From: Candidatus Saccharimonadota bacterium | GTDB lineage: Bacteria > Patescibacteriota > Gracilibacteria > BD1-5 > UBA6164 | Reading direction: 5' to 3' | DNA length: 32,000 nt | Assembly (NCBI GenBank): GCA_965229705.1 | Contig: OZ245922.1 | Location: forward strand, 690,001-722,000 | Part shown: positions 1 to 18,652 of the stretch, in pieces | Layout: the number at the start of each line of letters is the position of its first letter | Numbering within the stretch: the first letter of the stretch is position 1 | The notes under the pieces: model-generated | What the model was told of the DNA's origin: nothing | What the model saw: only the letters and a program-made list of their open reading frames with translations | The model's database searches: none | Program-made: the position numbers and the translations under genes

Positions 1-232
1 CTATCTGCATACCAATAATACTTTCTCCAAAGATGCTCGCACAAGCTGTCGTAATAATCGCTGTATCTCACTGGAAAGACCAGTTTTGTATTGTATTATT
101 TTTGATTTTTATATACACTTTGAGGTCATCTCCACAAGTACGATTTTCTTCCCAAAAGGATACATCGTAGTGAGGAAGTATTCCTTTATTTGGTGGTGTT
201 CTCGAATAAAATGTAATAATTTCGTTATGCAA
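1..232 (-). CDS. sufU: SufU/IscU-type Fe-S cluster scaffold, N-terminal part only (continues past window start)
   Basis: Minus-strand frame is open to the window edge. Translation from TTG (230-232): HNEIITFYSRTPPNKGILPHYDVSFWEENRTCGDDLKVYIKIKNNTIQNWSFQ(G=TGA)DTAIITTACASIFGESIIGMQ. This fits the NifU-N/SufU pattern (P.N.G, CGD, F.G.G-A-I..A.AS). The start codon is uncertain because there is no upstream ATG. Confidence 0.7.
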
Positions 233-240
233 GATAGGGA

Positions 241-269
241 AAAGTTTAAAGGGAAAAGCTAAAAGTAAG
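241..269. repeat. Left arm of the 29-bp perfect inverted repeat
   Basis: Exact reverse complement of 742-770, checked base by base. Confidence 0.9.
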
Positions 270-315
270 AGAAAAGTTACGAGTTACAGGTTGGAAGTTA
301 GAAAAAAATAACTAT

Positions 316-666
316 TTATGCACGCCTCTTTAAAGACTTAATCAGTCAAGCAAGCATTTTAGATATCTCAATACATACTTGAAACAGTTTCTGAAACATT
401 GTTTGATCTATATATCAAAAATCTAAAGCGATGTATAACATTGAGCGAACTTCTCAACAAGATCATTTAGCAATAAATAGAAATTGTCGTAGCTCTTTAT
501 CAGTTTGTCGCTCATATCATTCAGCAATATTATTGGAAATAGATACTGCTGCTCTTTCTATTTGGTTTTTAAATCAAAAATCAGAGTTACTTTGAAAAAT
601 CTTATATATTACAACTGATAAATCTTTTGCCTTTTTCCAACAGTCCAAATCTTCAAATTGTTTCAT
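316..666 (-). CDS. Four-helix-bundle protein (23S rRNA intervening-sequence protein family; DGR Avd-like fold family)
   Basis: 116 aa with 5 TGA read as Gly: MKQFEDLDCWKKAKDLSVVIYKIFQSNSDFGFKNQIERAAVSISNNIAEGYERQTDKELRQFLFIAKGSCGEVRSMLYIALDFGYIDQTMFQKLFQVCIEISKMLAGLIKSLKRRA. It carries the family hallmarks F.DL..W.KA, R.A.SI.SNIAEG and F..IA.GS..E. Confidence 0.85.
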
Positions 667-741
667 ATAATCTCTATCCTTAAATGTTAAACTCTCTCAA
701 CTCTTGCTTTCTGATTTTTTCCTCTTACTCCCCACTTCTCA

Positions 742-770
742 CTTACTTTTAGCTTTTCCCTTTAAACTTT
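742..770. repeat. Right arm of the 29-bp perfect inverted repeat, with an adjacent tandem copy of its CCCTTTAAACTTT unit
   Basis: Exact reverse complement of 241-269. The unit CCCTTTAAACTTT occurs at 758-770 and again at 779-791. Confidence 0.9.
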
Positions 771-811
771 CTACTTTCCCCTTTAAACTTTCCCCTTTCC
801 ACTTTTCACTC

Positions 812-2044
812 TTAGCTTCCAAGCTCAATAATAGCCTGATTCAAAATATCAAAAAATTTCTCTATATCTTCCCGAGTATTATATACTTGTAAACTCATTC
901 GGCACGTGTGTGTCTGCCCAACATATTCCATGAATGGCTCCGCACAATGCTGACCTGCACGCACGCAGATACTATGATTTGCAAGATAGTCAGAGATATC
1001 AAAACTATGAATTCCCTCTACAACAAAGGTAAAAACTCCGACTCTATTAACAGGAGAAGAAGAACCAATGAGTCTGAGTTGTGGTATTTGAGAAAATTTT
1101 TCTCAAGCATATTGTACTAAATCTGCCTCTATTATTTCAAGTGTTGTGTATCATCAAATACTCTCAATATACTCAAAAGCTTTGAGTATACTCACTGCTC
1201 CTGTAAGGTTTGGTGTTCCTGGTTCAAACTTGTCTGGCAGCTTGCTACTATGCGTAAAATGATGTTGCTTCACTTCTCCTATTGCTCCTCCTCATGAAAA
1301 TATAGGTTTGAGTTCCGTAAGAAGTTCTTCTTTTGCCCATAAAACTCCTATTCCAGAATCTGCAAAAACTTTATGTCCCGTAAAAAAGAGGGCGTCACAA
1401 CCAAGTTTTTCTACATCTACCTGAAAGTGTGGAACACTCTGAGAAGCATCTACAATCAGGAGTGGTTTTTGCTGTCTTCCGTATCGAGCCAAGAGCAATG
1501 AGTTGATATGAGCAATATCAAATATTTGCCCCGTGGTATTACTCACATGTGTCAGTGAAACAACTTTTACCCTACCACTAAGCTTATCTCGAAAGTCATT
1601 ATAGTCTACATCAAAATTTTCCGTCACTCATACAAACTCTACATTGATACCATAGTCTTCTTTGAGTATGAGCCATGGAACAACATTGGCGTGATGTTCA
1701 ACAATCGTGACAAGTACGGTATCTCAGGTTTTGAGTTTATGTGATCGCTGTAAGCTTTGAGCAAGAATATTGAGAGCGTATGTGGAGTTTGCTGTGTAAA
1801 CTATCTCTCTCCAGGACTCTGCTCAGATATGTTTTGCAACCATTTTTTTTGAGTCTTCATAGAGCTTTTCTGATTGTTCTGAGATATCATAACTTCCTCT
1901 ATGAATATTTGCGTAGCTTGATCTGAGATACTCACTCATACCTTCTATAACATGTGATGGTTTTTGAGCTGTCGCAGTACTATCGAGATATACAAGATCT
2001 GGATGAGTTGCGAATATCGGAAAATCTTTTTTAATGTTTGACAT
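812..2044 (-). CDS. sufS: Cysteine desulfurase SufS (class V aminotransferase)
   Basis: 410 aa once seven in-frame TGA are read as Gly. Diagnostic peptides: MSNIKKDFPIFATHPDLVYLDSTATAQKP, SLTHVSNTTGQIFD, FFTGHKVFADSGIGVLW, IFS(G)GGAIGEV, VRAGQHCAEPFM. Track fragments 1292-1627 and 1823-2044 are in the same frame. Confidence 0.95.
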
Positions 2045-2207
2045 ATATTTATGTAATTATATATCCAAATGGTACTCTTAAGAAAACTCTGAGAAAGGCA
2101 TTTTTTCTCTCCTTTTTCAAAGAAGAAATGGCTCATTAGAACCAGAGAGGATTGGAAAATTTTTGTTTCTTAGAGCTTTCTTACAACTCTGTGGGCGACG
2201 CCTTTTT

Positions 2208-2483
2208 TTATTTGTATATTTCTGCTCTCAAAGCTATTCGATGCACAAGAATGATATTATTTCCCATATCTATCGAATAAATAACTCTGTACTCTCACAC
2301 TCTGAGACGAAACTTATTCTCTGATTTTGGAGAAAGTTTTTTTATATCCCATTTTTGAGAAAAAGGATTTTCAGAAAATTTTTGTAAGGTACTTTTTATC
2401 TTTTTCTTCAATATATAGTCCTTGTTCATTTTTTGCCAATCTTTCTTAAAAGCTCAAGAATTGTCGAGTCGAATACTATACAT
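2208..2483 (-). CDS. RelE/ParE-family type II toxin
   Basis: 91 aa: MYSIRLDNSGAFKKDWQKMNKDYILKKKIKSTLQKFSENPFSQKWDIKKLSPKSENKFRLRVGEYRVIYSIDMGNNIILVHRIALRAEIYK. The core R.RVG.YR.IY.I......I....I..R...Y is typical of the family. Its ATG overlaps the antitoxin stop by 8 nt (ATGTATAG). Confidence 0.8.
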
Positions 2484-2766
2484 CTCCAAATACTTCATCA
2501 AAAGATAAGAAGGCATCTTTGTTTCTCTGTTTATAATTCTTTTCAGACTCACGAATAGCCGCAATTGTTTCTTCATTGAGTTCGTCAAGACGGATAGCTC
2601 TCACATCCCAATCTATTTTTTCTTTTTCTAGTGGCTCTATCACAACTCTCCCTGCTTCAAATTTTGCTCTCACGTGCTGTTTATCTACTCACATTTCTTT
2701 TCGCCATTCTTGCGGAATCGTATATTGCCCGTTCCCTATAGGCTTTAAGATAGCTTCTGTAATCAT
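2476..2766 (-). CDS. AbrB/MazE (SpoVT-AbrB fold) antitoxin
   Basis: 96 aa: MITEAILKPIGNGQYTIPQEWRKEM(G)VDKQHVRAKFEAGRVVIEPL... The N-terminal swapped-hairpin motif (G.G..TIP.E.R...G) and the overlap with the downstream RelE-like gene support the call. Confidence 0.75.
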
Positions 2767-2834
2767 AAGAGTTAAAGTAATTTAATAATTAAATTAATGT
2801 AATTATATCGAAGACTCACAAGAAATACAAGTAT

Positions 2835-3584
2835 TTATTCGTGTCTTATTTTTTCTAGTACTTTTGCTTGTAGCTCTGCATATAAGGCTTCATTATACTC
2901 TTCCAAACCTCAAAATATCTTATATATATAACTCTCCAACATGAGAAGTGTGGCATCTTGCTTTGGGAGACCACGACTGCGGAGATAAAAAAGCTTTTCG
3001 TCCGAAATTTTTTCCATATTACAGGCGTGTGATGCCTTTACATCATTACTGTGTACTAAAAGTGTTGGAAGTCATCGCACTTTTCCGGTACTTCCAAGAA
3101 AAATATTCTCTTCAACCAGATACCCTTCTACTCCTGCTATATTTTCTCGAATATCTATGATACCATCAAGATCTATGAGACCATTGTCTGAAACAAAGCT
3201 TACAATATTCATATCGAGAAAACTTTTACTTGCAGCAACTTCTCCATGAATTTTTGCTTCTATATTTTCTCATCGAGAACTCAACAGACTATATACTTCG
3301 CAGCGACTCTCCTCACTTCCGAGTAGAAAATGTTTGTCATATACCACTCAGCCATTCCGGGAGTTCTCCTTATTAAGGGGAGCATTTTCTTCCTCTCTTG
3401 ATAAAAGGAGATTGAGGGGGGTCTTTGAGAAATATGAAAAATATTTGAGACTTGCTCAAACTCCAAAAGTGACTTTCCTCAAAATATTTTCTTCATCAAA
3501 AATAACAGCAGAAATACCATCTACAATATGTACTTCATCTGCAAGTTCTGATGAGAGATACAGTCTATTTTCTTGTATGTTCAT
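2835..3584 (-). CDS. sufD: SufD-like Fe-S assembly protein (short form, 249 aa)
   Basis: The C-terminal region ...LPTLLVHSNDVKASHACNMEKISDEKLFYLRSRGLPKQDATLLMLESYIYKIF... matches the SufB/SufD signature (V.CSHGATVG..D...LFYL.SRG). The frame was checked codon by codon with TGA as Gly and has no TAA/TAG. Confidence 0.8.
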
Positions 3585-3587
3585 AGT

Positions 3588-3983
3588 TTATTTTTTACTA
3601 TTTAAAAAGTTTTGCCTCAGTTGCCTGAGCTTCTCAAGATCAATTTTTGGAATTGGTTTCTCAAAAGCAAAGCTCGTCCCACAACCACACCTATCCTCTA
3701 CATCATCACTAGCGAAAATATATCGTATTTTTTCTATTCCGGTATGGTCTGCTTTTTTCACTCGAGTAATACTCGCATTCTCTAGGTACTGCGTGTCTGT
3801 TTTTGGAACATACAGATGAAACTCATACGCACTTTCGAGTTCATCGAGAGTTTCATCAACCTGAAACTCTGTTTCCATATTGATCTTCGTTCCACTACAT
3901 CCAGCCTCATAAAAAAACACTTTGAGTTTTTTGACTCAAGCTTCTTGAAATTCGGATACTGTTTTTTTATCGAGTTGGAGCAT
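3588..3983 (-). CDS. sufA: HesB/IscA/SufA-type Fe-S cluster carrier
   Basis: 131 aa: MLQLDKKTVSEFQEA(G)VKKLKVFFYEAGCSGTKINME...DRCGCGTSFAFEK. It has the conserved Cys in GCSG and the C-terminal CGCG.SF motif. The start lies 2 nt after the hicA stop. Confidence 0.85.
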
Positions 3984-3985
3984 AG

Positions 3986-4201
3986 TTACAAAAAATCTTT
4001 TTTAGATAATCAACTTTGTCGAATAATACTCATTGTTGTGCGAATATTGAGGGTCTTTTTTCCGTGATCTGGAACAGTGATTCGTATATCTCATTTTTTG
4101 AGCTGAACATGACTTCATTTTTGATGGGACACAAAAAATCACTTTTCAAGAAGTATCTCAATAATATCTTTTGAGCATATATTATGAATATTTGGAGACA
4201 T
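3986..4201 (-). CDS. hicA: HicA-family toxin (mRNA interferase)
   Basis: 71 aa: MSPNIHNICSKDIIEILLEK(G)FFVSHQK(G)SHVQLKK(G)DIRITVPDHGKKTLNIRTTMSIIRQS(G)LSKKDFL. This fits the HicA pattern (L.K.GF...RQ.GSH......TVP.H..K.L..GT...I.KQAGL). Confidence 0.85.
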
Positions 4202-4205
4202 CCTC

Positions 4206-4427
4206 TTATACACTTACATAAGTATTCATAGCATTTTTGAGAGATTCATATATTTGGTACTCTTCATCATGTTTTTCAAGGCCTTCTATATGACAAGCAA
4301 GGGCCTCCTGTCAATTAGTTATTGCTTCTTCAAGACTATCTCCCTGTGTTACAATATTAAAAATATTTGAGAGAACGGTATATGTTCCGTCTTCATTTTT
4401 AATAATTGTTAGTGGTATTTGTGACAT
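4206..4427 (-). CDS. hicB: HicB-family antitoxin (UPF0150 domain only)
   Basis: 73 aa: MSQIPLTIIKNEDGTYTVLSNIFNIVTQGDSLEEAITN(G)QEALACHIEGLEKHDEEYQIYESLKNAMNTYVSV. This fits the HicB N-domain pattern (EDG.Y.......G..TQG.SLEEA..N..EAL..H.E). The stop lies 4 nt upstream of the hicA start. Confidence 0.85.
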
Positions 4428-4551
4428 AAATATGGAAATACGAAAATATTTTATTTACTATATATATATTTTTAAAAAAGCATTTTCTGTTTTTTATTTT
4501 TCCCCTGCTGGACTCACCTCTTTTATAAGGGGGAGTTAGAGCGGGTACAAA

Positions 4552-5955
4552 CTACCCAATAGACCCCTCCATCTCCATTGATATAAGAACATTCATCTCG
4601 CTGGCATACTCCAGTGGAAGTTCTTTGACAATAGGAGAAATAAATCCGTTCACGATCATCGCCGCTGCCTCTTCTTCTCCGATACCACGAGACTGCAAAT
4701 AAAAGAGATCATCTTCATTGATTTTTCCTGCGCTTGCCTCATGGGCAACGATAGAATCAGTATTTGCACAACGAATATCTGGAATCGTATCTGATCATGA
4801 AATATCATCAAGCAGTAAGGCATCACACTCAATATGTGTGACACTTCCCGTTGCTCATGGCTTAATATCTATGAGCCCCCTATAAGTTGAGAGTCATCAT
4901 CCTTTGGAGATAGATTTTGATACCACACTACTAGAAGTATTTTTTCCGATATGGATAATCTTGGCTCCTGTATCCTGATTTTGCCCAGTATTTGCAAAAG
5001 CAACACCAAGGTGATCTGCTCGAGAATTATCTCCTTTCAACACACTACAAGGATAGAGCATTGTCGTATTTGAACCCATATTTCCTCATACCCATTCCAT
5101 ATATCCTCACTCTTCCACAATAGCTCTTTTAGTATTAAGATTATATGTATCAAGAGACCAGTTTTCTACCGAGCTATATCTCATGGTAGCATTTTTTCCT
5201 ACAAATATTTCTACTCATCCAGCGTGTAGTGAGTTTTCATCATACTTTGGAGCACTACACCCCTCTATATAATGAGCTTCTGCATCATCTTCTATGATAA
5301 TCATAGTATGCTCAAATTGTCCTCATTTTTTCACATTCATTCGAAAATATGACTGCAGTGGTTCTGAGACCTTGACTCACTTTGGAACATAGAGAAATGT
5401 CCCCCCTGACCATACAGCATAATGAAGAGCACTAAACTTGTGATCATTGAGAGGAATAGATTTTGCAAAATATTTTTTGATAATTGCCTCGTAGTGAGGG
5501 TTTTTGAGAGCGTGAGACAGATCATCAAAGACTACTCCCTCTTTCGCTATTTCTTCTTTGAGGCTATGATACACTGTCTCGCTATCATACTGCGCTCCGA
5601 CACCTGCAAGGGCTTTTTTCTCTGCTTCCGGAATACCGAGCTTATCAAAAGTACTTTTTATATTTTCTGGAACATCATCCCAAGACTTGTTATTTCCTGC
5701 GCCTTCTGGACGACGAAAATAATAAATAGATTGCAAATCTAGCTTTGAAAGATTTGGTCACCATGCTGGCATTGCGCGATCGTTATAGAGTTTGAGAGCC
5801 TCTAATCTCAGCTTGAGCATCCACTCAGGTTCTTCATTTTCTCGACTGATCTGCCGTACAACATCTTCATTTATTCCCTGAATTGCATCTCATTTATAGG
5901 TAACATTGTCTGAGAAATCCCAGGTATTTTGGACAGTTACTGTTTGTGTACTCAT
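4552..5955 (-). CDS. sufB: Fe-S cluster assembly protein SufB
   Basis: 467 aa with TGA as Gly. Peptides: [39 protein letters not shown]-equivalent region [46 protein letters not shown]. Track fragments 5377-5736 and 4897-5079 are in frame. Confidence 0.95.
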
Positions 5956-13252: not shown

Positions 13253-16200
13253 ATGTCAGAAAATACTGATATTTACGACCAACTCGATCAGATAGACTGA
13301 CAAGAGTGAGAAGATGAAACTCGTGCTCTACTAAAAGAGGCTGAGGTTATTGCTTCGCGCTTTCAAAATGTAGATGCCGTAATGCAAAAATATCAGGATC
13401 TTCGGCAAACAACTATAGATGCTCTTGCTGATCTTCGTATTGATACAGCCAATGAGTTAGCAAATATGAGAAAAGAGTTTCAGGATATGAAAAATGTCGC
13501 TGGAGTATGAGTAAATGAAGATGGGAATAGTATTCCTGATATGCCCAGTTATTTTCAAGAAAATACACGAAATTGAAATTTATTACAAAATACTCCTTTT
13601 ATCGAGTTTTCAGATGAAGAAAAAGAATTTGCACTTTCATGGATTACAGAAAACTACTCAGATTTTCGTGGTTCTGGAAGCTGGTGACAAAACGATCGGC
13701 TTTCTCGAGTACACAATAAAGAAGAAGCAAGAATATCTCAAGAAAATCTTATAAATCTTTTATACAATAGCAGTGCTATTTCTCACTGATTTTACAATAC
13801 CTGATCAGAAGTATTATTTTTTACCTTGACGGATAATCATTGATGGGTGCAAGAAAATATACATAGTATAGAAAATGAAATAGAAAATGGGAGTATTTCA
13901 TCTGAAAAGCTCCAAAAGTATATTCACTATCTTGAACTTTCAAAAATTTCTACAGATTTTGAAATAGCTGAAATACTGATAGAAAAAAATATACACCTAG
14001 CTGATACTCTAAGTACTTGAAAGGTTCGTTGAGTGTATCGTGCACTACTTACTATAAAAGATCCTGAGATTCGAAGTCTTGCGACTACGAGTGTTGAGAA
14101 ACTCTCTCCCGAATCTGCAAAAAAGGTTCTTCATTTTTTACAAAACGATAGTCGAACATGAGATTATAGTGAAGATATTTGACTCAGTTGAATAGGAGCA
14201 ATGATTGAAGTGCATAACGATAATCAAAGAGACACTTTTCAAAAAGAGCTGATAAAAAGAGCTTTTTGAGAAGCTCTTATAGATAACTGATATGATGCGG
14301 GGAAATTGCTCGCATATTCTCGTGAGAAAGGATATAGTGTTCTCACAGAAGCACAATTTAATAATAGTCTCCGAAAAAGAGATAGCTATGCTCTTGTGAA
14401 CTATGTTGCATCACTCTCACAGAGATATAATGGAGATCTCTCTCAAGTACGACAAATATTGCGAACAGACTCTTTATGATTTATGTCTCCAAACGAAATT
14501 GAGGAGCTTCTCAAAGAATCAACAAGAAAAAACTCAATGCATGCAGATACAATGAATAGTCTCATAGGACTGTTTGAGTCACCTGAGGGACTAGAAGATA
14601 TTTTTTGGAAGCCTATAGATGATCTCTCGTCAGAACAAGCTCGTAAAGCCTTAGAATATACCAATGAATTTTTCTGAGAGAAAAATACACCTGCAAACTG
14701 GTTTTGACTTGCAGACTGGGATGCGTGAAGTATCTCGGAGATTTATACCCTTGATGATCGAAATGAATCTCAAAAAAAGCTCATAGATAAGATTTATGGT
14801 GACGGAACTTTTGAGACATGATATACTCAAGATGGGAGTATTATTTGATATTCTGACGAAGAATGAGGAAATCATCTATCAACCACAGAAGAATTTGAAG
14901 CAAAACTTCAAGGAGGAAAAGAGTTTAATGCTCTTATAGCTGCAAACTATATTAGGTATTTATCATCTCAATATGAATGAGACACTTTATCTTACAAAAT
15001 CTTAGAAACCTTTGTACCAAGAGCAAAATCTCAAGAGAAAAAATTCGAAGAATACATAAATGATGATTTACTTACCTTTTTAAAAGCAAGTAAAAATGAA
15101 GATGTAAAGTCTGCTCTCGAAATACTCAGAAAAGAACGTATACTTATACACGAGTGATGAGTTGAAGTTTGGCTAAAAGATAATCAATGGGAAACTCTCA
15201 AAGATGAATACTATCAAGCCAAAGAAGACCTTGAATCACTATGTAATAGTGATATAGGTGGAAATAATAAACTAGTAGACTTAAATGATGCCGTAGTACG
15301 TACTCATGAAAGTCAGTGTAGTATTCAAAAAGAGCGTCCTGCATTTTGAAACGAGATAGATACAGAACTCATAGATAATTGTCTACAATCTTGTGACTTC
15401 TCTAAATGAGTAGATAGTAGAGCAGATGTGGATATATCAGATTTTGATACTCAAGTTTTGAGCCTTGAGACACAAGCAAGAATACAAAGCTTTTGATGAA
15501 AAATATCAGAAAAAACCAACGCATTCACCACACAAATCCTTGCATGACCATATGGGCAAGTACCATGAATCCAAACGCTTCTCAGAGAGTATAATATTAA
15601 TGGTAGCGAAGATCTTTCTCATCCTTCGGCAAACGGTATACAGTGAGCCTATAACTCTGATGAGTTTCAAAACGCATTCAATACTCTGATACAAAGCTAT
15701 AACCAAGATACAAGTAATAAGCCTCTTCCAGAACTCTCTGGAGCTACACTAGATATTATCATGGCACAAATCGACGAAGTAGGAGACGAAGATTTTACCA
15801 CAGAGTTTGCGAGCAAACTCACATGAGTCGAAAGCTTATGAGGACTATTAGATGGAGCTGCAACAGAAATTCAAAATTGATGAAGAGAGATAGATGCAGA
15901 GTACAAAAAACTCAATACCGACTGACATACTACTAGCAGTATTATGGAAATACTATGAGCTCTTTCTACCCTTGCACCAAATAGTAATGGATTTCATGCA
16001 GCAAGAGAAGTGATTCTTTCACTACCAGAAAATCAAGGAACTTCTACGAATTTTGCAAATAATTCCTTCTATACATGAATTCCAGCTTCTAATAGCTTAG
16101 GTGGTCATATAGACAACATTACCGTTGCCGCAAAGTATCAAGAGTTTGGAGAAGAGTTAGAAATAAATATTAATGAACAAGCCTGTAAAGAAAATATTAC

Positions 16201-18652
16201 AAAAATATTTACTGGTATTCCCGAGTGAATCATAGATGTTGACGAAGTGTTTACAGGACTTCTTACAAAAATCTCAGAGTGATCCAATCCTCTACTCGTT
16301 GAAAATCTTGATCAGTTGAAGACATTTTTAGAAACATGAGATATAGACTCGCTTGATGATTCTGCTCTTGCTGAACTGATACGAGAGGTATACGCTGAGG
16401 CTCTATCTCTTACAGAGTCAATAATCGTAAGCAAAATGAAGCGACAAGAGGAACTCTTAGCAGAGTGATGAGATCCTGATGAATTTAGCCAAATAACATC
16501 TGAGCTTGCAAGCCTCTTTGTAATTAGAAAAGAACTGCAGTTAAGCAGTTTTGTTGTATCAGGGAACTTCACGCTCGAAGGAAATAATACTTGAGTAACG
16601 GCGCAAGATATTCTCCGTAGTTTTTTAGATTGAGAAATAAGTGAAGAAGCATATAAGCAAACACTTATAGAATTGTATAGTAATAATGAGGCTATAAGGG
16701 AAGAAAATGAAAGATTAGAATGAGAGTTAGATGAAAAACTTGATTATATAGCAAAACTGTCACGTGATTTTATTTCGCAAATTAGTGAGTGACTTACTCT
16801 AGATGAAATACAACAAAAAAAAGAATTATTTAGATTTTCTAACTACTATGTCCTCAGAGCAGAACAAAACCTAGAAGACAATAATGAAATTGGAAATAAA
16901 ATAGTTGGTATAAATGAAGCTTTACATAAGGAACTTACGGAAAAATGGAATAACATCATTGAAAGTATACGTACAGATATAAAAACTTCAGCTAATTCTA
17001 CAACATCTATGAATCTTGCAAATGAAGATTTCTGAAACGAGAGTATTCAAAACGATAATGAAATACAAAGTATGCTAGATCTGGCAAAAGAAACTGAATG
17101 GAGAAACAAACTTGAACATAATATAGGGAATATAGAGGTTTTAGATGACTCAAGAGTTGCTATTTTTGAAGCTCTCCAAGGCTTTGGTCTCACAGAAGAA
17201 GAAACCCATGAGATATTTTGACAGGTATTATCTAAAATCAAAAAAGATCCAAATCTTGTAAATAATACCCAGCACCTTGCTCAGCTCCTCGAATGAAAAG
17301 AGTTTGCATGAGATGAGCTTAGTGCGACCATCCATGCTATATACACGCATACTGCTCAGCAAAATGCTGAGAAACTCAAAATTGCTACAAAAGAATTCTC
17401 TCATCTTCAAGACAAAATAGATAGATGAGAGTATCTCACGCCTGATGAATTGGCAGATATAAGAGCTCTTGCACATCTTATATGAGAGTATATAGACTTT
17501 AATAATAAGCTTGAGATTGAAAATCATATTTTCACTACTGGTGGAGAGACTCTCATAGAAAAATTCCTAAATGGAGAAATCACTCTTGAAGAAATGCATG
17601 ATCAAGTAAGGAAAAAAAGACAAGAAAGTATTGCAGTATTAAGGTGAGGGCAAGTAGCAAGAACATGACATATTATAGCAATTGTAGATCAAACCGTTCT
17701 TGATGCTAGTTGAGATACTTCTATGATACCAGATATGGAATTCCCTTATCCTCTTACATCTGAAGAAGAATATCTCCTCGAGTCATGAGCATATCATGCA
17801 CGTTATGAGAATGCGAGTCTCGTAGAAGAGATAGCAACAGATATATCTCACTCTTCAAGCACTCAGTGAGCGGTAGCAACAGTCACATTAGTAGAAACTA
17901 CCGGAGAAGAAAACTTTTCTTCTGAAACTCTCGAATTTATTGAAGAACAAAAAGAAGTCATCATCGCATATTCTCAAAGTGATAAGTGACAAAAAGATAT
18001 TATGTTTCAGGCAAGTCTCAAACATATGAAAGAGAGTCTTTGAGAAGAAAACAGTTTCGTGCAATCACTTGAAAAGATAGAGTCTTGAGAGGTAAGGGTT
18101 ATCCCCCCACTCACAGCTCAAAATATCTCCTCTCCAAACATGAAAACTACCTATAGAGAAATATCTCAAGAACTCACCCTCTCTCCCGAAGAACAAGAAA
18201 CACTCACAGAGCAAGAACTCACCCTCATCGCCTCCAACGAAAACGCAAAAGAACGCTTTGTAGAGTTTCGTACCACCCTCAAAGAGCTCTGACTCACAGA
18301 ACTCTGGAGATACAGAAATGAGATTTTTCGCTCCATTGCAGGCATGAGTTTTAGCATCACAGACGGAGACTACATCAGTGAAAATGAACTCAATATCTTC
18401 CTGTCAAAAAGCGTCTACGCAACAACACAAGATTCACGACTCAAAACAACTCCTGGAAACATCACAAGCACAAAACAAATCATCAGAGAAGTGAATCGAC
18501 AAACTGGAGGTTTTGGGGATATAAACGCTGTCAATGTTATCGGAGAACCGCTCACTCTCGTAGAATACCACTTTCGAGAAAAATTTGCGCCTCGAAACGC
18601 ATGAATGATTAGCTATTATACGCAGGCATTTCGAGATGCACTAAAATCATAG
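13253..18652 (+). CDS. Giant hypothetical protein, 1,799 aa, no recognisable domain
   Basis: A single frame runs from ATG 13253 to TAG 18650-18652. The first 2.2 kb was walked codon by codon with coordinates, and the rest as continuous triplets that re-enter track ORF 18344-18604 in phase. About 64 in-frame TGA and no TAA/TAG in a low-GC context. Track fragments 14483-14677 and 18344-18604 lie in this frame. Confidence 0.85.

Follow-up and report, generated by a model that had tools for sequence, protein, structure and literature searches.

Why is a gene for a small four-helix-bundle (4HB) protein found between sufS and sufU, enclosed by a long inverted repeat? We have addressed this question in a 32-kb stretch of contig OZ245922.1 from a member of the Gracilibacteria (the window, or W; L-numbers such as L001 designate the contigs and loci used for comparison). 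The spacer between the two suf genes (233–811, 579 nt) contains the 4HB gene, whose product belongs to a protein family known from the intervening sequences (IVSs) of 23S rRNA. The explanation we favour, with a confidence slightly better than even, is that the spacer is an IVS-type 4HB cassette lodged in the suf mRNA operon, and that its arms pair in the transcript.

Inverted heptamer arrays around the gene

The sequence AAAGTTTAAAGGGAAAAGCTAAAAGTAAG (241–269) is the exact reverse complement of 742–770, as a first-pass annotation had stated. Allowing up to three mismatches, this 29-mer occurs at these two sites of the window and nowhere else in it, and no match appears in 100 dinucleotide-preserving shuffles. 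A scan of the full 32 kb gives no other long inverted repeat of this kind. Both arms are arrays with a period of seven nucleotides: the lag-7 autocorrelation is 0.60 in the 5' arm and 0.57 in the 3' arm (5' and 3' refer to the operon transcript, Table 1), and Tandem Repeats Finder (TRF) detects periods of 7, 14 and 21 over 745–810. On the operon strand, the 5' arm runs GAGTGAA AAGTGGA AAGGGGA AAGTTTA AAGGGGA AAGTAGA AAGTTTA AAGGGAA AAGCTAA AAGTAAG and so on. The tandem duplication of CCCTTTAAACTTT that had been reported at 758–770 and 779–791 is present. In L001, which comes from nearly the same strain (SufS 98% identical), the 5' arm differs from that of W by exactly 35 nt, that is, five heptamers, which correspond to 764–798 of the window and are absent in L001.

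Imperfect pairing had been described as extending outward from the perfect core. An extension exists, but it runs mainly inward (241–290 with 721–770, 50 nt, 86%); outward, the tandem units provide only alternative pairing registers (233–266 with 766–799, and 236–265 with 781–810). The arms had also been described as adjoining the sufS stop and the sufU start. A purine-rich arm does follow sufS and a pyrimidine-rich arm does precede sufU. The perfect core, however, leaves gaps of 41 nt to the sufS stop and 8 nt to the sufU start; both spacers are filled, up to the stop and start codons, by the complete heptamer arrays.

When the RNA of the operon strand (200–840) is folded, the arms close the entire 4HB cistron, with a free energy of -168.4 kcal/mol, compared with -128.9 ± 4.5 for shuffles (z = -8.7). 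The two strands of the putative duplex are 430 nt apart, with a complete gene between them. The minimum free energy structure also closes the cassette in L001 (z = -5.1). No sigma-70-like promoter or intrinsic-terminator-like sites are found within the cassette on the operon strand, where counts equal those of shuffles. This is consistent with read-through transcription, short of proof.

Insertion, age and selection

To judge from related genomes, the sufS–sufU spacer is an insertion. The first-pass annotation had proposed a search for empty sites, and a scan of species-representative genomes with SufS provides them: the junction is empty in four related species, all of them metagenome-assembled genomes (MAGs) of Gracilibacteria (L003–L006), whose SufS is 72–77% identical by tblastn and 75–79% over the full alignment. 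No 4HB gene is found in these four loci. The sufS stop overlaps the sufU ATG (TAATG) in L003 and L006, and the two genes are separated by 4 nt in L004 and by 2 nt in L005. Filled junctions are found at the same place in four contigs: W (579 nt), L001 (545 nt), L002 (408 nt) and L088 (410 nt). The 4HB protein of L002 is 84% identical to that of W, and that of L088 is 73% identical. All four filled sites read TAA/insert...T/TG, the junction in W being TAA/GAGTG...CTATCT/TG, so sufU has a TTG start where the empty sites have ATG. Precise removal of the insert would restore TAATG. No duplicated bases, which would indicate a target-site duplication, are found at the suf junction when it is compared with the empty TAATG.

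The cassette is not recent. In the 4HB genes of W, L002 and L088, the proportion of synonymous differences (pS) is 0.66–0.82, which means saturation, the nonsynonymous distance (dN) is 0.10–0.16, and the ratio of nonsynonymous to synonymous distances (dN/dS) is about 0.07–0.08 or less, similar to that of the adjacent half of sufS (0.07–0.12). Five TGA codons, read as glycine in genetic code 25, are common to the three genes. Given the saturated pS, the low dN/dS and the shared TGA codons, the cassette has resided in code-25 genomes throughout the divergence of these lineages, with a functional protein. The protein is under strong purifying selection, and the arm architecture has been kept over the same divergence.

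In neighbour-joining trees of the flanking proteins, W and L001 group with the empty L003 and L004, L002 pairs with L088, and the filled sites do not form a single clade. A history with two gains at one site is as parsimonious as one with two precise losses, and the synonymous sites have reached saturation. A mobile cassette had been among the interpretations offered for this locus, but nothing points to recent mobility: the arm is unique in the window, the pS values are those just given, and the closest pairs of cassettes mostly have the same flanks. The element is an old resident, vertically kept, which has been gained or lost a few times; it is not an active transposon.

Resemblance to the intervening sequences of 23S rRNA

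The enclosed gene is a single one of 116 aa, and its assignment to the 23S-IVS protein family is borne out by profile matches: PF05635 with 122.2 bits (cut-off 33.8), TIGR02436 with 119.5 (cut-off 24) and NF008912 with 134.3 (cut-off 124). The motif GxxRxxxSxxxNxxE is conserved in the 4HB family (PMC3936711). Its residues R38, S42, N46 and E49 are present in the window protein and are invariant, or nearly so, in the alignment of homologues; the first position is Q35 rather than G in this subfamily. The protein matches two homopentameric structures, 2GSC (XCC0516; E = 6.5e-14, residues 4–115) and 2RLD, and by this homology it would form a pentameric ring. A PADLOC search relates it to no defence system, and a search of 2.9 million viral contigs gives a single partial match. 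Rfam detects one tRNA and no rRNA in the window.

The likeness to rRNA IVSs pointed out in the first-pass annotation is closer than was claimed there. The 23S IVS of Coxiella burnetii has 428–444 nt, with a 28-bp terminal stem, an S23p open reading frame (ORF) in the loop and, upstream of this ORF, tandem GACAGAT heptamers, of which strains carry two or three; RNase III cuts the IVS out in vitro, and the ends have been mapped in the stem (PMC4990558). The cassettes at the suf junction have a similar size (410–580 nt), carry an S23p/PF05635 ORF in the loop, and have complementary termini, which in W can form a long stem (29 bp perfect). Heptamers located 5' of the ORF vary in copy number, here by five between W and L001. 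The distribution among relatives is sporadic, with four empty and four filled sufS–sufU junctions in the Gracilibacteria contigs.

There are also differences. The host RNA is a protein-coding operon instead of helix 25 or 45 of 23S rRNA. The ORF is under strong purifying selection, while that of Coxiella is reported to be decaying and probably untranslated (PMC4990558). Excision by RNase III has been demonstrated for IVSs, and here it would be an expectation. Cutting an mRNA would split its cistrons, whereas a fragmented rRNA stays assembled. Since the window element lies outside 23S rRNA, the location which defines rRNA IVSs, it is not one of them. It appears to be the same kind of element as an ORF-bearing 23S IVS, in a different host transcript: all the anatomical features tested match except the host RNA.

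The same architecture in other operons

A metagenome scan with an alignment of 41 homologues gave 80 loci whose 4HB proteins are 51–63% identical to the window protein. The RNAduplex energy of 156-nt flanks was dropped as a metric for the family, as random flanks already give -40 to -60 kcal/mol, and local complementarity was scored instead. Complementarity of the 140 nt on the upstream side of the gene to the 140 nt on its downstream side has a median score of 43.5, compared with 23 for intervals displaced within each contig; of 72 loci, 79% score above the controls' 95th percentile (Mann–Whitney p = 1.8e-26). On the sense strand, the enrichment is 18.8-fold for AAAGT upstream of the gene and 18-fold for ACTTT downstream of it, and the spacing of the units is 7 and 9 nt. 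In 368 kb of DNA, 118 of the 144 AAAG/CTTT arrays adjoin a 4HB gene; among the remaining ones, several are found beside additional 4HB copies. The median distance from the upstream stop codon to the beginning of the 5' arm is 4 nt, and from the 3' arm to the downstream start it is 8 nt; the median arm in the family has 36 nt. Of 56 loci, 49 have both neighbours co-directional with the 4HB gene; for the upstream gene alone, the strand agrees in 67 of 70.

The neighbours are diverse housekeeping genes. Among their products are MacB/FtsX and ABC transporters, LolA, Obg, MetRS, GDP-mannose dehydratase, UDP-glucose dehydrogenase and sugar-nucleotide enzymes. None of 40 loci analyzed with Rfam has the cassette within an rRNA gene. 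The hosts, as named by the sources, include Paceibacterota/Pacebacteria, Taylorbacteria and Bacteroidales. A further case is found in a published gene table of Flavobacterium columnare, where the order is guanylate kinase–4HB–nadD (gmk–nadD), with spacers of 33–35 nt, in a predicted "phage region" (PMC5524665). In F. psychrophilum, a 4HB gene of this kind is differentially expressed (PMC5787105), and is therefore transcribed.

The crystallised protein XCC0516 belongs to another branch of the family. This protein and its homologues in Xanthomonas spp., X. sacchari, Stenotrophomonas, Lysobacter and Dyella are all encoded between accB and accC. Heptamers of the form GGGAATN begin 3–6 nt after the accB stop, and their complement ends 0–7 nt before the accC ATG, the arm on the accC side reading ...CCCATTC CCCATTC CCGACTC CCTATTC CC. 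The predicted fold closes the cassette in Xanthomonas (z = -4.0). The unit differs from the AAAGT type, but the 7-nt period, the purine-rich 5' array and the arms abutting stop and start codons are common to both. For experiments, the accB–XCC0516–accC operon is a convenient system in a cultivable host, since a crystal structure and genetics are available and the downstream gene is essential.

The locus in the window is one instance of a widespread architecture, in which IVS-type cassettes are found beyond rRNA. Two results that would have spoken against the first-pass annotation, arms unique to this locus and a lack of empty junctions, are not seen: similar arms flank homologues in many genomes, and four related species have an empty junction. 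The same cassette occupies operon junctions in Gracilibacteria and Xanthomonadales, and probably also in other lineages of the candidate phyla radiation (CPR) and in Bacteroidota, and purifying selection has kept it there. This indicates that the rRNA cases are a minority context of the cassette, at least in the branches sampled, out of a PF05635 family of 9,907 clusters at 50% identity. The question of what 23S IVSs do and where they come from dates from the early 1990s. Both the function and the origin of these IVSs and of their ORF are still open (PMC4990558), and the present results would let the IVS be viewed more generally, as a "stem-bridged" insertion found in abundant transcripts. The genes of such cassettes are now annotated as unrelated "four helix bundle proteins", counted as cas-associated (PMC3936711) or listed in a predicted phage region (PMC5524665).

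The operon context also bears on the idea that the 4HB gene simply serves the suf (Fe–S assembly) operon as one of its usual accessory genes, and that the repeat is a local product of slippage with no function. In favour of this idea, four contigs representing at least three lineages have the gene at this position, and it evolves under purifying selection. Against it, homologues with the same arms are found in unrelated operons (MacB/FtsX, ABC transporters, LolA, Obg, MetRS, accBC, gmk–nadD), the nearest relatives of W by SufS have no 4HB gene, and the repeat architecture is family-wide, far above controls. We consider this idea very improbable.

A second alternative is that the arms are the terminal inverted repeats (TIRs) of a non-autonomous DNA transposon, similar to a miniature inverted-repeat transposable element (MITE) with a passenger gene, which would be moved by a transposase encoded elsewhere; any effects on RNA would be incidental. 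As in MITEs, the inverted termini form the very ends of the inserted DNA, the empty sites are precise (TAATG in L003 and L006), and hairpins of the same units without an ORF exist (L085, 3975–4062). Besides, the filled sites are not monophyletic on the trees of flanking proteins, cassettes about 80% identical are found between unrelated genes (L026/L056, L041/L045, L046/L057, L011/L015), and pairing between the arms has no excess of G·U (see below). Other features do not fit. There is no visible target-site duplication, the 32-kb window has a single copy, and no pair of nearly identical cassettes is found at different sites. The termini are arrays of 7–9-nt units instead of a unique transposase-binding end, and after saturating divergence they are still intact and have kept their motif; in a transposon that no longer moves, the ends should decay. 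The strong orientation bias with respect to host transcription and the exact placement between stop and start codons are not expected from transposase targeting alone, and the gene carried is conserved, with a protein under strong purifying selection. For these reasons a transposon of this type is, in our opinion, quite improbable.

Several loci have unusual arrangements. L026 contains three 4HB copies within 3.3 kb (833–4234), split by long CTTT arrays of up to 16 units, and L010 contains two cassettes, one on each side of a MacB/FtsX gene (2501–4602); in each of these contigs the copies are diverged and lie within about 5 kb. The hairpin of L085 mentioned above consists of AAAG units, about 30 nt and CTTT units, and L038 has a similar one (3702–4096) in which the AAAG and CTTT units are about 250 nt apart; both, which lack an ORF or are filled differently, may be remnants or miniature derivatives of the cassette. 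In L014, a 186-nt array of 23 AAAGT-type units (1443–1628) is found directly upstream of a gene for an ABC-2 permease-like protein, which is in the homology cluster of a Pfam-annotated protein of L044. No 4HB gene adjoins this array, and the 4HB gene of the locus is about 870 nt away, the array being upstream of it. L041 has its cassette (3735–4284) near an rRNA operon but outside the rRNA; the operon, represented by 5S and the 3' end of 23S, lies on the opposite strand, with its end about 900 nt away.

Pairing or a shared motif

According to the explanation we favour, the cassette consists of a PF05635 gene with no promoter of its own and of inverted heptamer arrays whose outer ends are the ends of the inserted DNA. 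It would be transcribed as part of the suf mRNA. The arms would then pair (29 bp perfect, about 50 bp imperfect), loop out the 4HB cistron and bring the sufS stop beside the sufU TTG; because the duplex loops out the cistron, the insertion would leave the topology of the host RNA unaffected, in the way an IVS stem does in 23S rRNA. In W, L001 and the many family members with long stems, the duplex would be long enough for RNase III, and cleavage would free a separate 4HB mRNA. Alternatively or additionally, and in all lineages, a ribosome ending at sufS could melt the base of the stem and free the sufU start. This would restore the coupling of stop and start which the TAATG of the empty site provides; otherwise the downstream start would lie against a pyrimidine-rich arm, with no Shine–Dalgarno sequence.

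Comparison of arms within and between loci favours pairing. A 5' arm pairs better with the 3' arm of its own locus than with foreign 3' arms (median 37 versus 25, p = 7e-10); in 15 of 49 loci, against about four expected, the own arm scores higher than each of the 12 foreign arms tried. The real arms also beat arms with permuted units in 15 of 18 informative loci (Wilcoxon p = 3.7e-4); in W, none of 60 permutations reaches the real score. As permuted arms pair worse, the 3' arm mirrors the order of the non-identical units of the 5' arm. This mirrored order speaks in favour of pairing, or of one arm being a copy of the other.

A number of results weigh against this explanation. Co-transcription, duplex formation, cleavage, translational bridging and binding of the protein to the repeats are all steps that we infer from sequence. 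Foreign arm pairs still score well (95th percentile 48). With strand-symmetric scoring, mismatches of the G:T type (38) and of the A:C type (43) give no signal of G·U tolerance, and with no G·U excess, nothing singles out the sense RNA as the target of selection, as opposed to the DNA or the sequence of each arm. An apparent G·U tolerance in a first count was an artefact of a scoring scheme that favours G·U, and it disappears under symmetric scoring. The core of the arm is conserved across very divergent elements, and the arms of Xanthomonadales are nearly invariant across five genera; this suggests sequence-specific recognition, which simple pairing does not need. The last 5' heptamers may even be coding in Xanthomonadales, as part of a possible N-terminal extension (M-x-NRESSKRPHE). 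At the suf site itself, L002 and L088 have perfect cores of only 11–12 bp, in imperfect arms of 31–43 nt, with spacers of 29–30 nt and 39 nt, and the fold of L002 closes the cassette yet is no better than shuffles (z = -0.8). The cores being so short in these two contigs, a long duplex of the kind cut by RNase III is not conserved even at this site; the long perfect stem is specific to the lineage of W and L001.

Taken together, the arms carry a lineage-specific motif under sequence constraint and also match each other in register; pairing of RNA and pairing of DNA are not distinguished by these data. The conserved core of the repeats suggests a sequence-specific partner besides pairing, for which the encoded ring protein would be the obvious candidate. 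This leads to a third alternative: the arms may serve mainly as sites, arranged in arrays, to which a factor binds by sequence. The pentameric 4HB protein would be the most plausible one, and it would act on RNA or DNA, for example in autoregulation or in the control of neighbours; the complementarity of the arms would then largely follow from the inversion of the motif. The core motif is kept across proteins 51–63% identical to that of the window, cross-locus arm pairs score well, the period is strictly 7 or 9 nt, the GGGAATN heptamers are nearly invariant in five genera of Xanthomonadales, and G·U is not in excess. The 2GSC protein is a ring-shaped homopentamer (PMC4990558), and its relative Avd works with nucleic acid in diversity-generating retroelements (DGRs). 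On the other side, independent sites would not need the 3' arm to mirror the order of units in the 5' arm, nor the match of W to be 29 out of 29, variable positions included. The number of repeat units per arm (mode 4, range 0–16) has a broad distribution with no relation to a pentamer, and binding by the 4HB protein is a prediction from sequence. As the main function of the arms, we consider binding sites rather unlikely; they are compatible with arms that pair in the transcript, the explanation we favour, as the protein could toggle the stem.

A broader proposal may be added, which we regard as unlikely. PF05635 cassettes might be widespread "mRNA intervening sequences" in operons, and their ring-shaped product would bind to heptamer arrays on the RNA that encodes it and decide whether the arms pair. 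The TRAP ring, which binds spaced triplets, would be a comparable case. Alternatively, the protein might work as Avd does, with a reverse transcriptase acting in trans which copies the excised, stem-closed RNA into transcribed junctions. In the first of these versions, if it were true, pairing could control both the cleavage of the operon mRNA by RNase III and the coupling of the flanking cistrons, and the host would depend on keeping the protein intact, since it would decide the pairing of the arms.

Other known systems

The 4HB protein is in the same fold superfamily as the Avd protein of DGRs, with a weak PHROG match (E = 3.8e-4), and PF05635 has been described as resembling Avd (PMC10053308). 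However, the gene is found in a housekeeping operon with heptamer arrays, which is not a described feature of DGRs; no search aimed at a pair of template and variable repeats was made. The genes called up to about 6 kb away in L001, L002 and L088 include no reverse transcriptase (RVT) family, and the other ORFs of the window were inspected by eye only. The neighbours are suf genes, toxin–antitoxin pairs, Rrf2 and L1. On the basis of these called genes and of the weak match to Avd, the cassette is not a DGR.

The intercistronic stems known to be cut by RNase III, those of phage T7 early mRNA and of rRNA precursors, are local hairpins, while in the window the strands of the duplex lie far apart around a whole gene, in an insertion with its own protein. 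The similarity lies in the double-stranded RNA between cistrons of a polycistronic RNA (cases cited in PMC4990558), which could also be cut here into separate mRNAs.

Genes of the 4HB family have also been observed inside cas loci (PMC3936711; PMC10910872). In the literature searched, which includes few subscription journals, the family appears only as ORFs of rRNA IVSs, as relatives of Avd, as genes in cas loci and in annotation tables. This literature contains no description of flanking arrays or of an operon-junction architecture for 4HB genes.

Genetic code and gene content

The features of the cassette are collected in Table 1. The entire window (1–32000) uses genetic code 25. ORFs of at least 100 aa add up to 4,998 aa with translation table 11 and to 23,666 aa when TGA is read as a sense codon; table 11 splits the region into fragments, and the sufS ORF is unbroken only under tables 4 and 25. 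The 4HB gene has six in-frame TGA codons, at positions 31, 50, 68, 71, 84 and 107, so its ORF is readable only with TGA as glycine. Positions 50, 68 and 107 are glycine in at least 90% of the homologues, and it is on this basis that code 25 (TGA = Gly) is assigned. Records of related genomes are titled Candidatus Gracilibacteria, which fits this code.

Table 1. Location of the cassette components and adjacent genes in the window, with the XCC0516-type cassette for comparison
Feature	Coordinates	Strand	Evidence or remarks
sufS, cysteine desulfurase, 410 aa under code 25	812..2044	-	Aminotran_5 368.5 bits; TAA stop 812-814
4HB protein gene (PF05635/TIGR02436), 116 aa + TAA	316..666	-	Profile matches; PDB 2GSC E = 6.5e-14
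sufU 5' part (NifU_N), leaves the window at its edge	1..232	-	NifU_N 33.6 bits; TTG start 230-232
5' arm on operon transcript, about 13 tandem purine-rich heptamers (AAG-NNN-A), directly after sufS stop	721..811	-	Lag-7 autocorrelation, TRF
5' arm, perfect 29-nt core, imperfect extension to 721	742..770	-	Exact reverse complement of 241-269
3' arm on operon transcript, pyrimidine-rich heptamer array ending at sufU start	233..290	-	Pairs with 721-770
3' arm, perfect 29-nt core	241..269	-	Exact reverse complement of 742-770
XCC0516-type cassette	L094 3424-3873; also L092, L093, L096-L102		GGGAATN / NATTCCC heptamer arrays

Outside the suf operon, the window contains an ORF of 1,799 aa under code 25 (13253–18652, plus strand), rich in acidic and repetitive segments and with no function evident by eye.

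The suf operon of the window contains other small genes, on the minus strand. An AbrB/MazE-like antitoxin (2476–2766) and a ParE toxin (2208–2516) are encoded between sufD and sufS (2208–2766), and HicB (4206–4427) and HicA (3986–4201) between sufB and a sufA-like gene (3986–4427). Both pairs are also present in L001 and are missing from the compact suf operons of L004–L006. Flanking inverted arrays were looked for around these two pairs in the suf operon, and none were found. As these pairs have no arms, the arms are specific to the 4HB gene, unlike a general cassette signal such as attC. In L002, a gene of 167 aa with a faint match to GNAT acetyltransferases is found between sufB and the sufA-like gene (1364–1867). 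With this insert at the sufB/sufA-like junction, the suf operon of Gracilibacteria is seen to take in small genes repeatedly.

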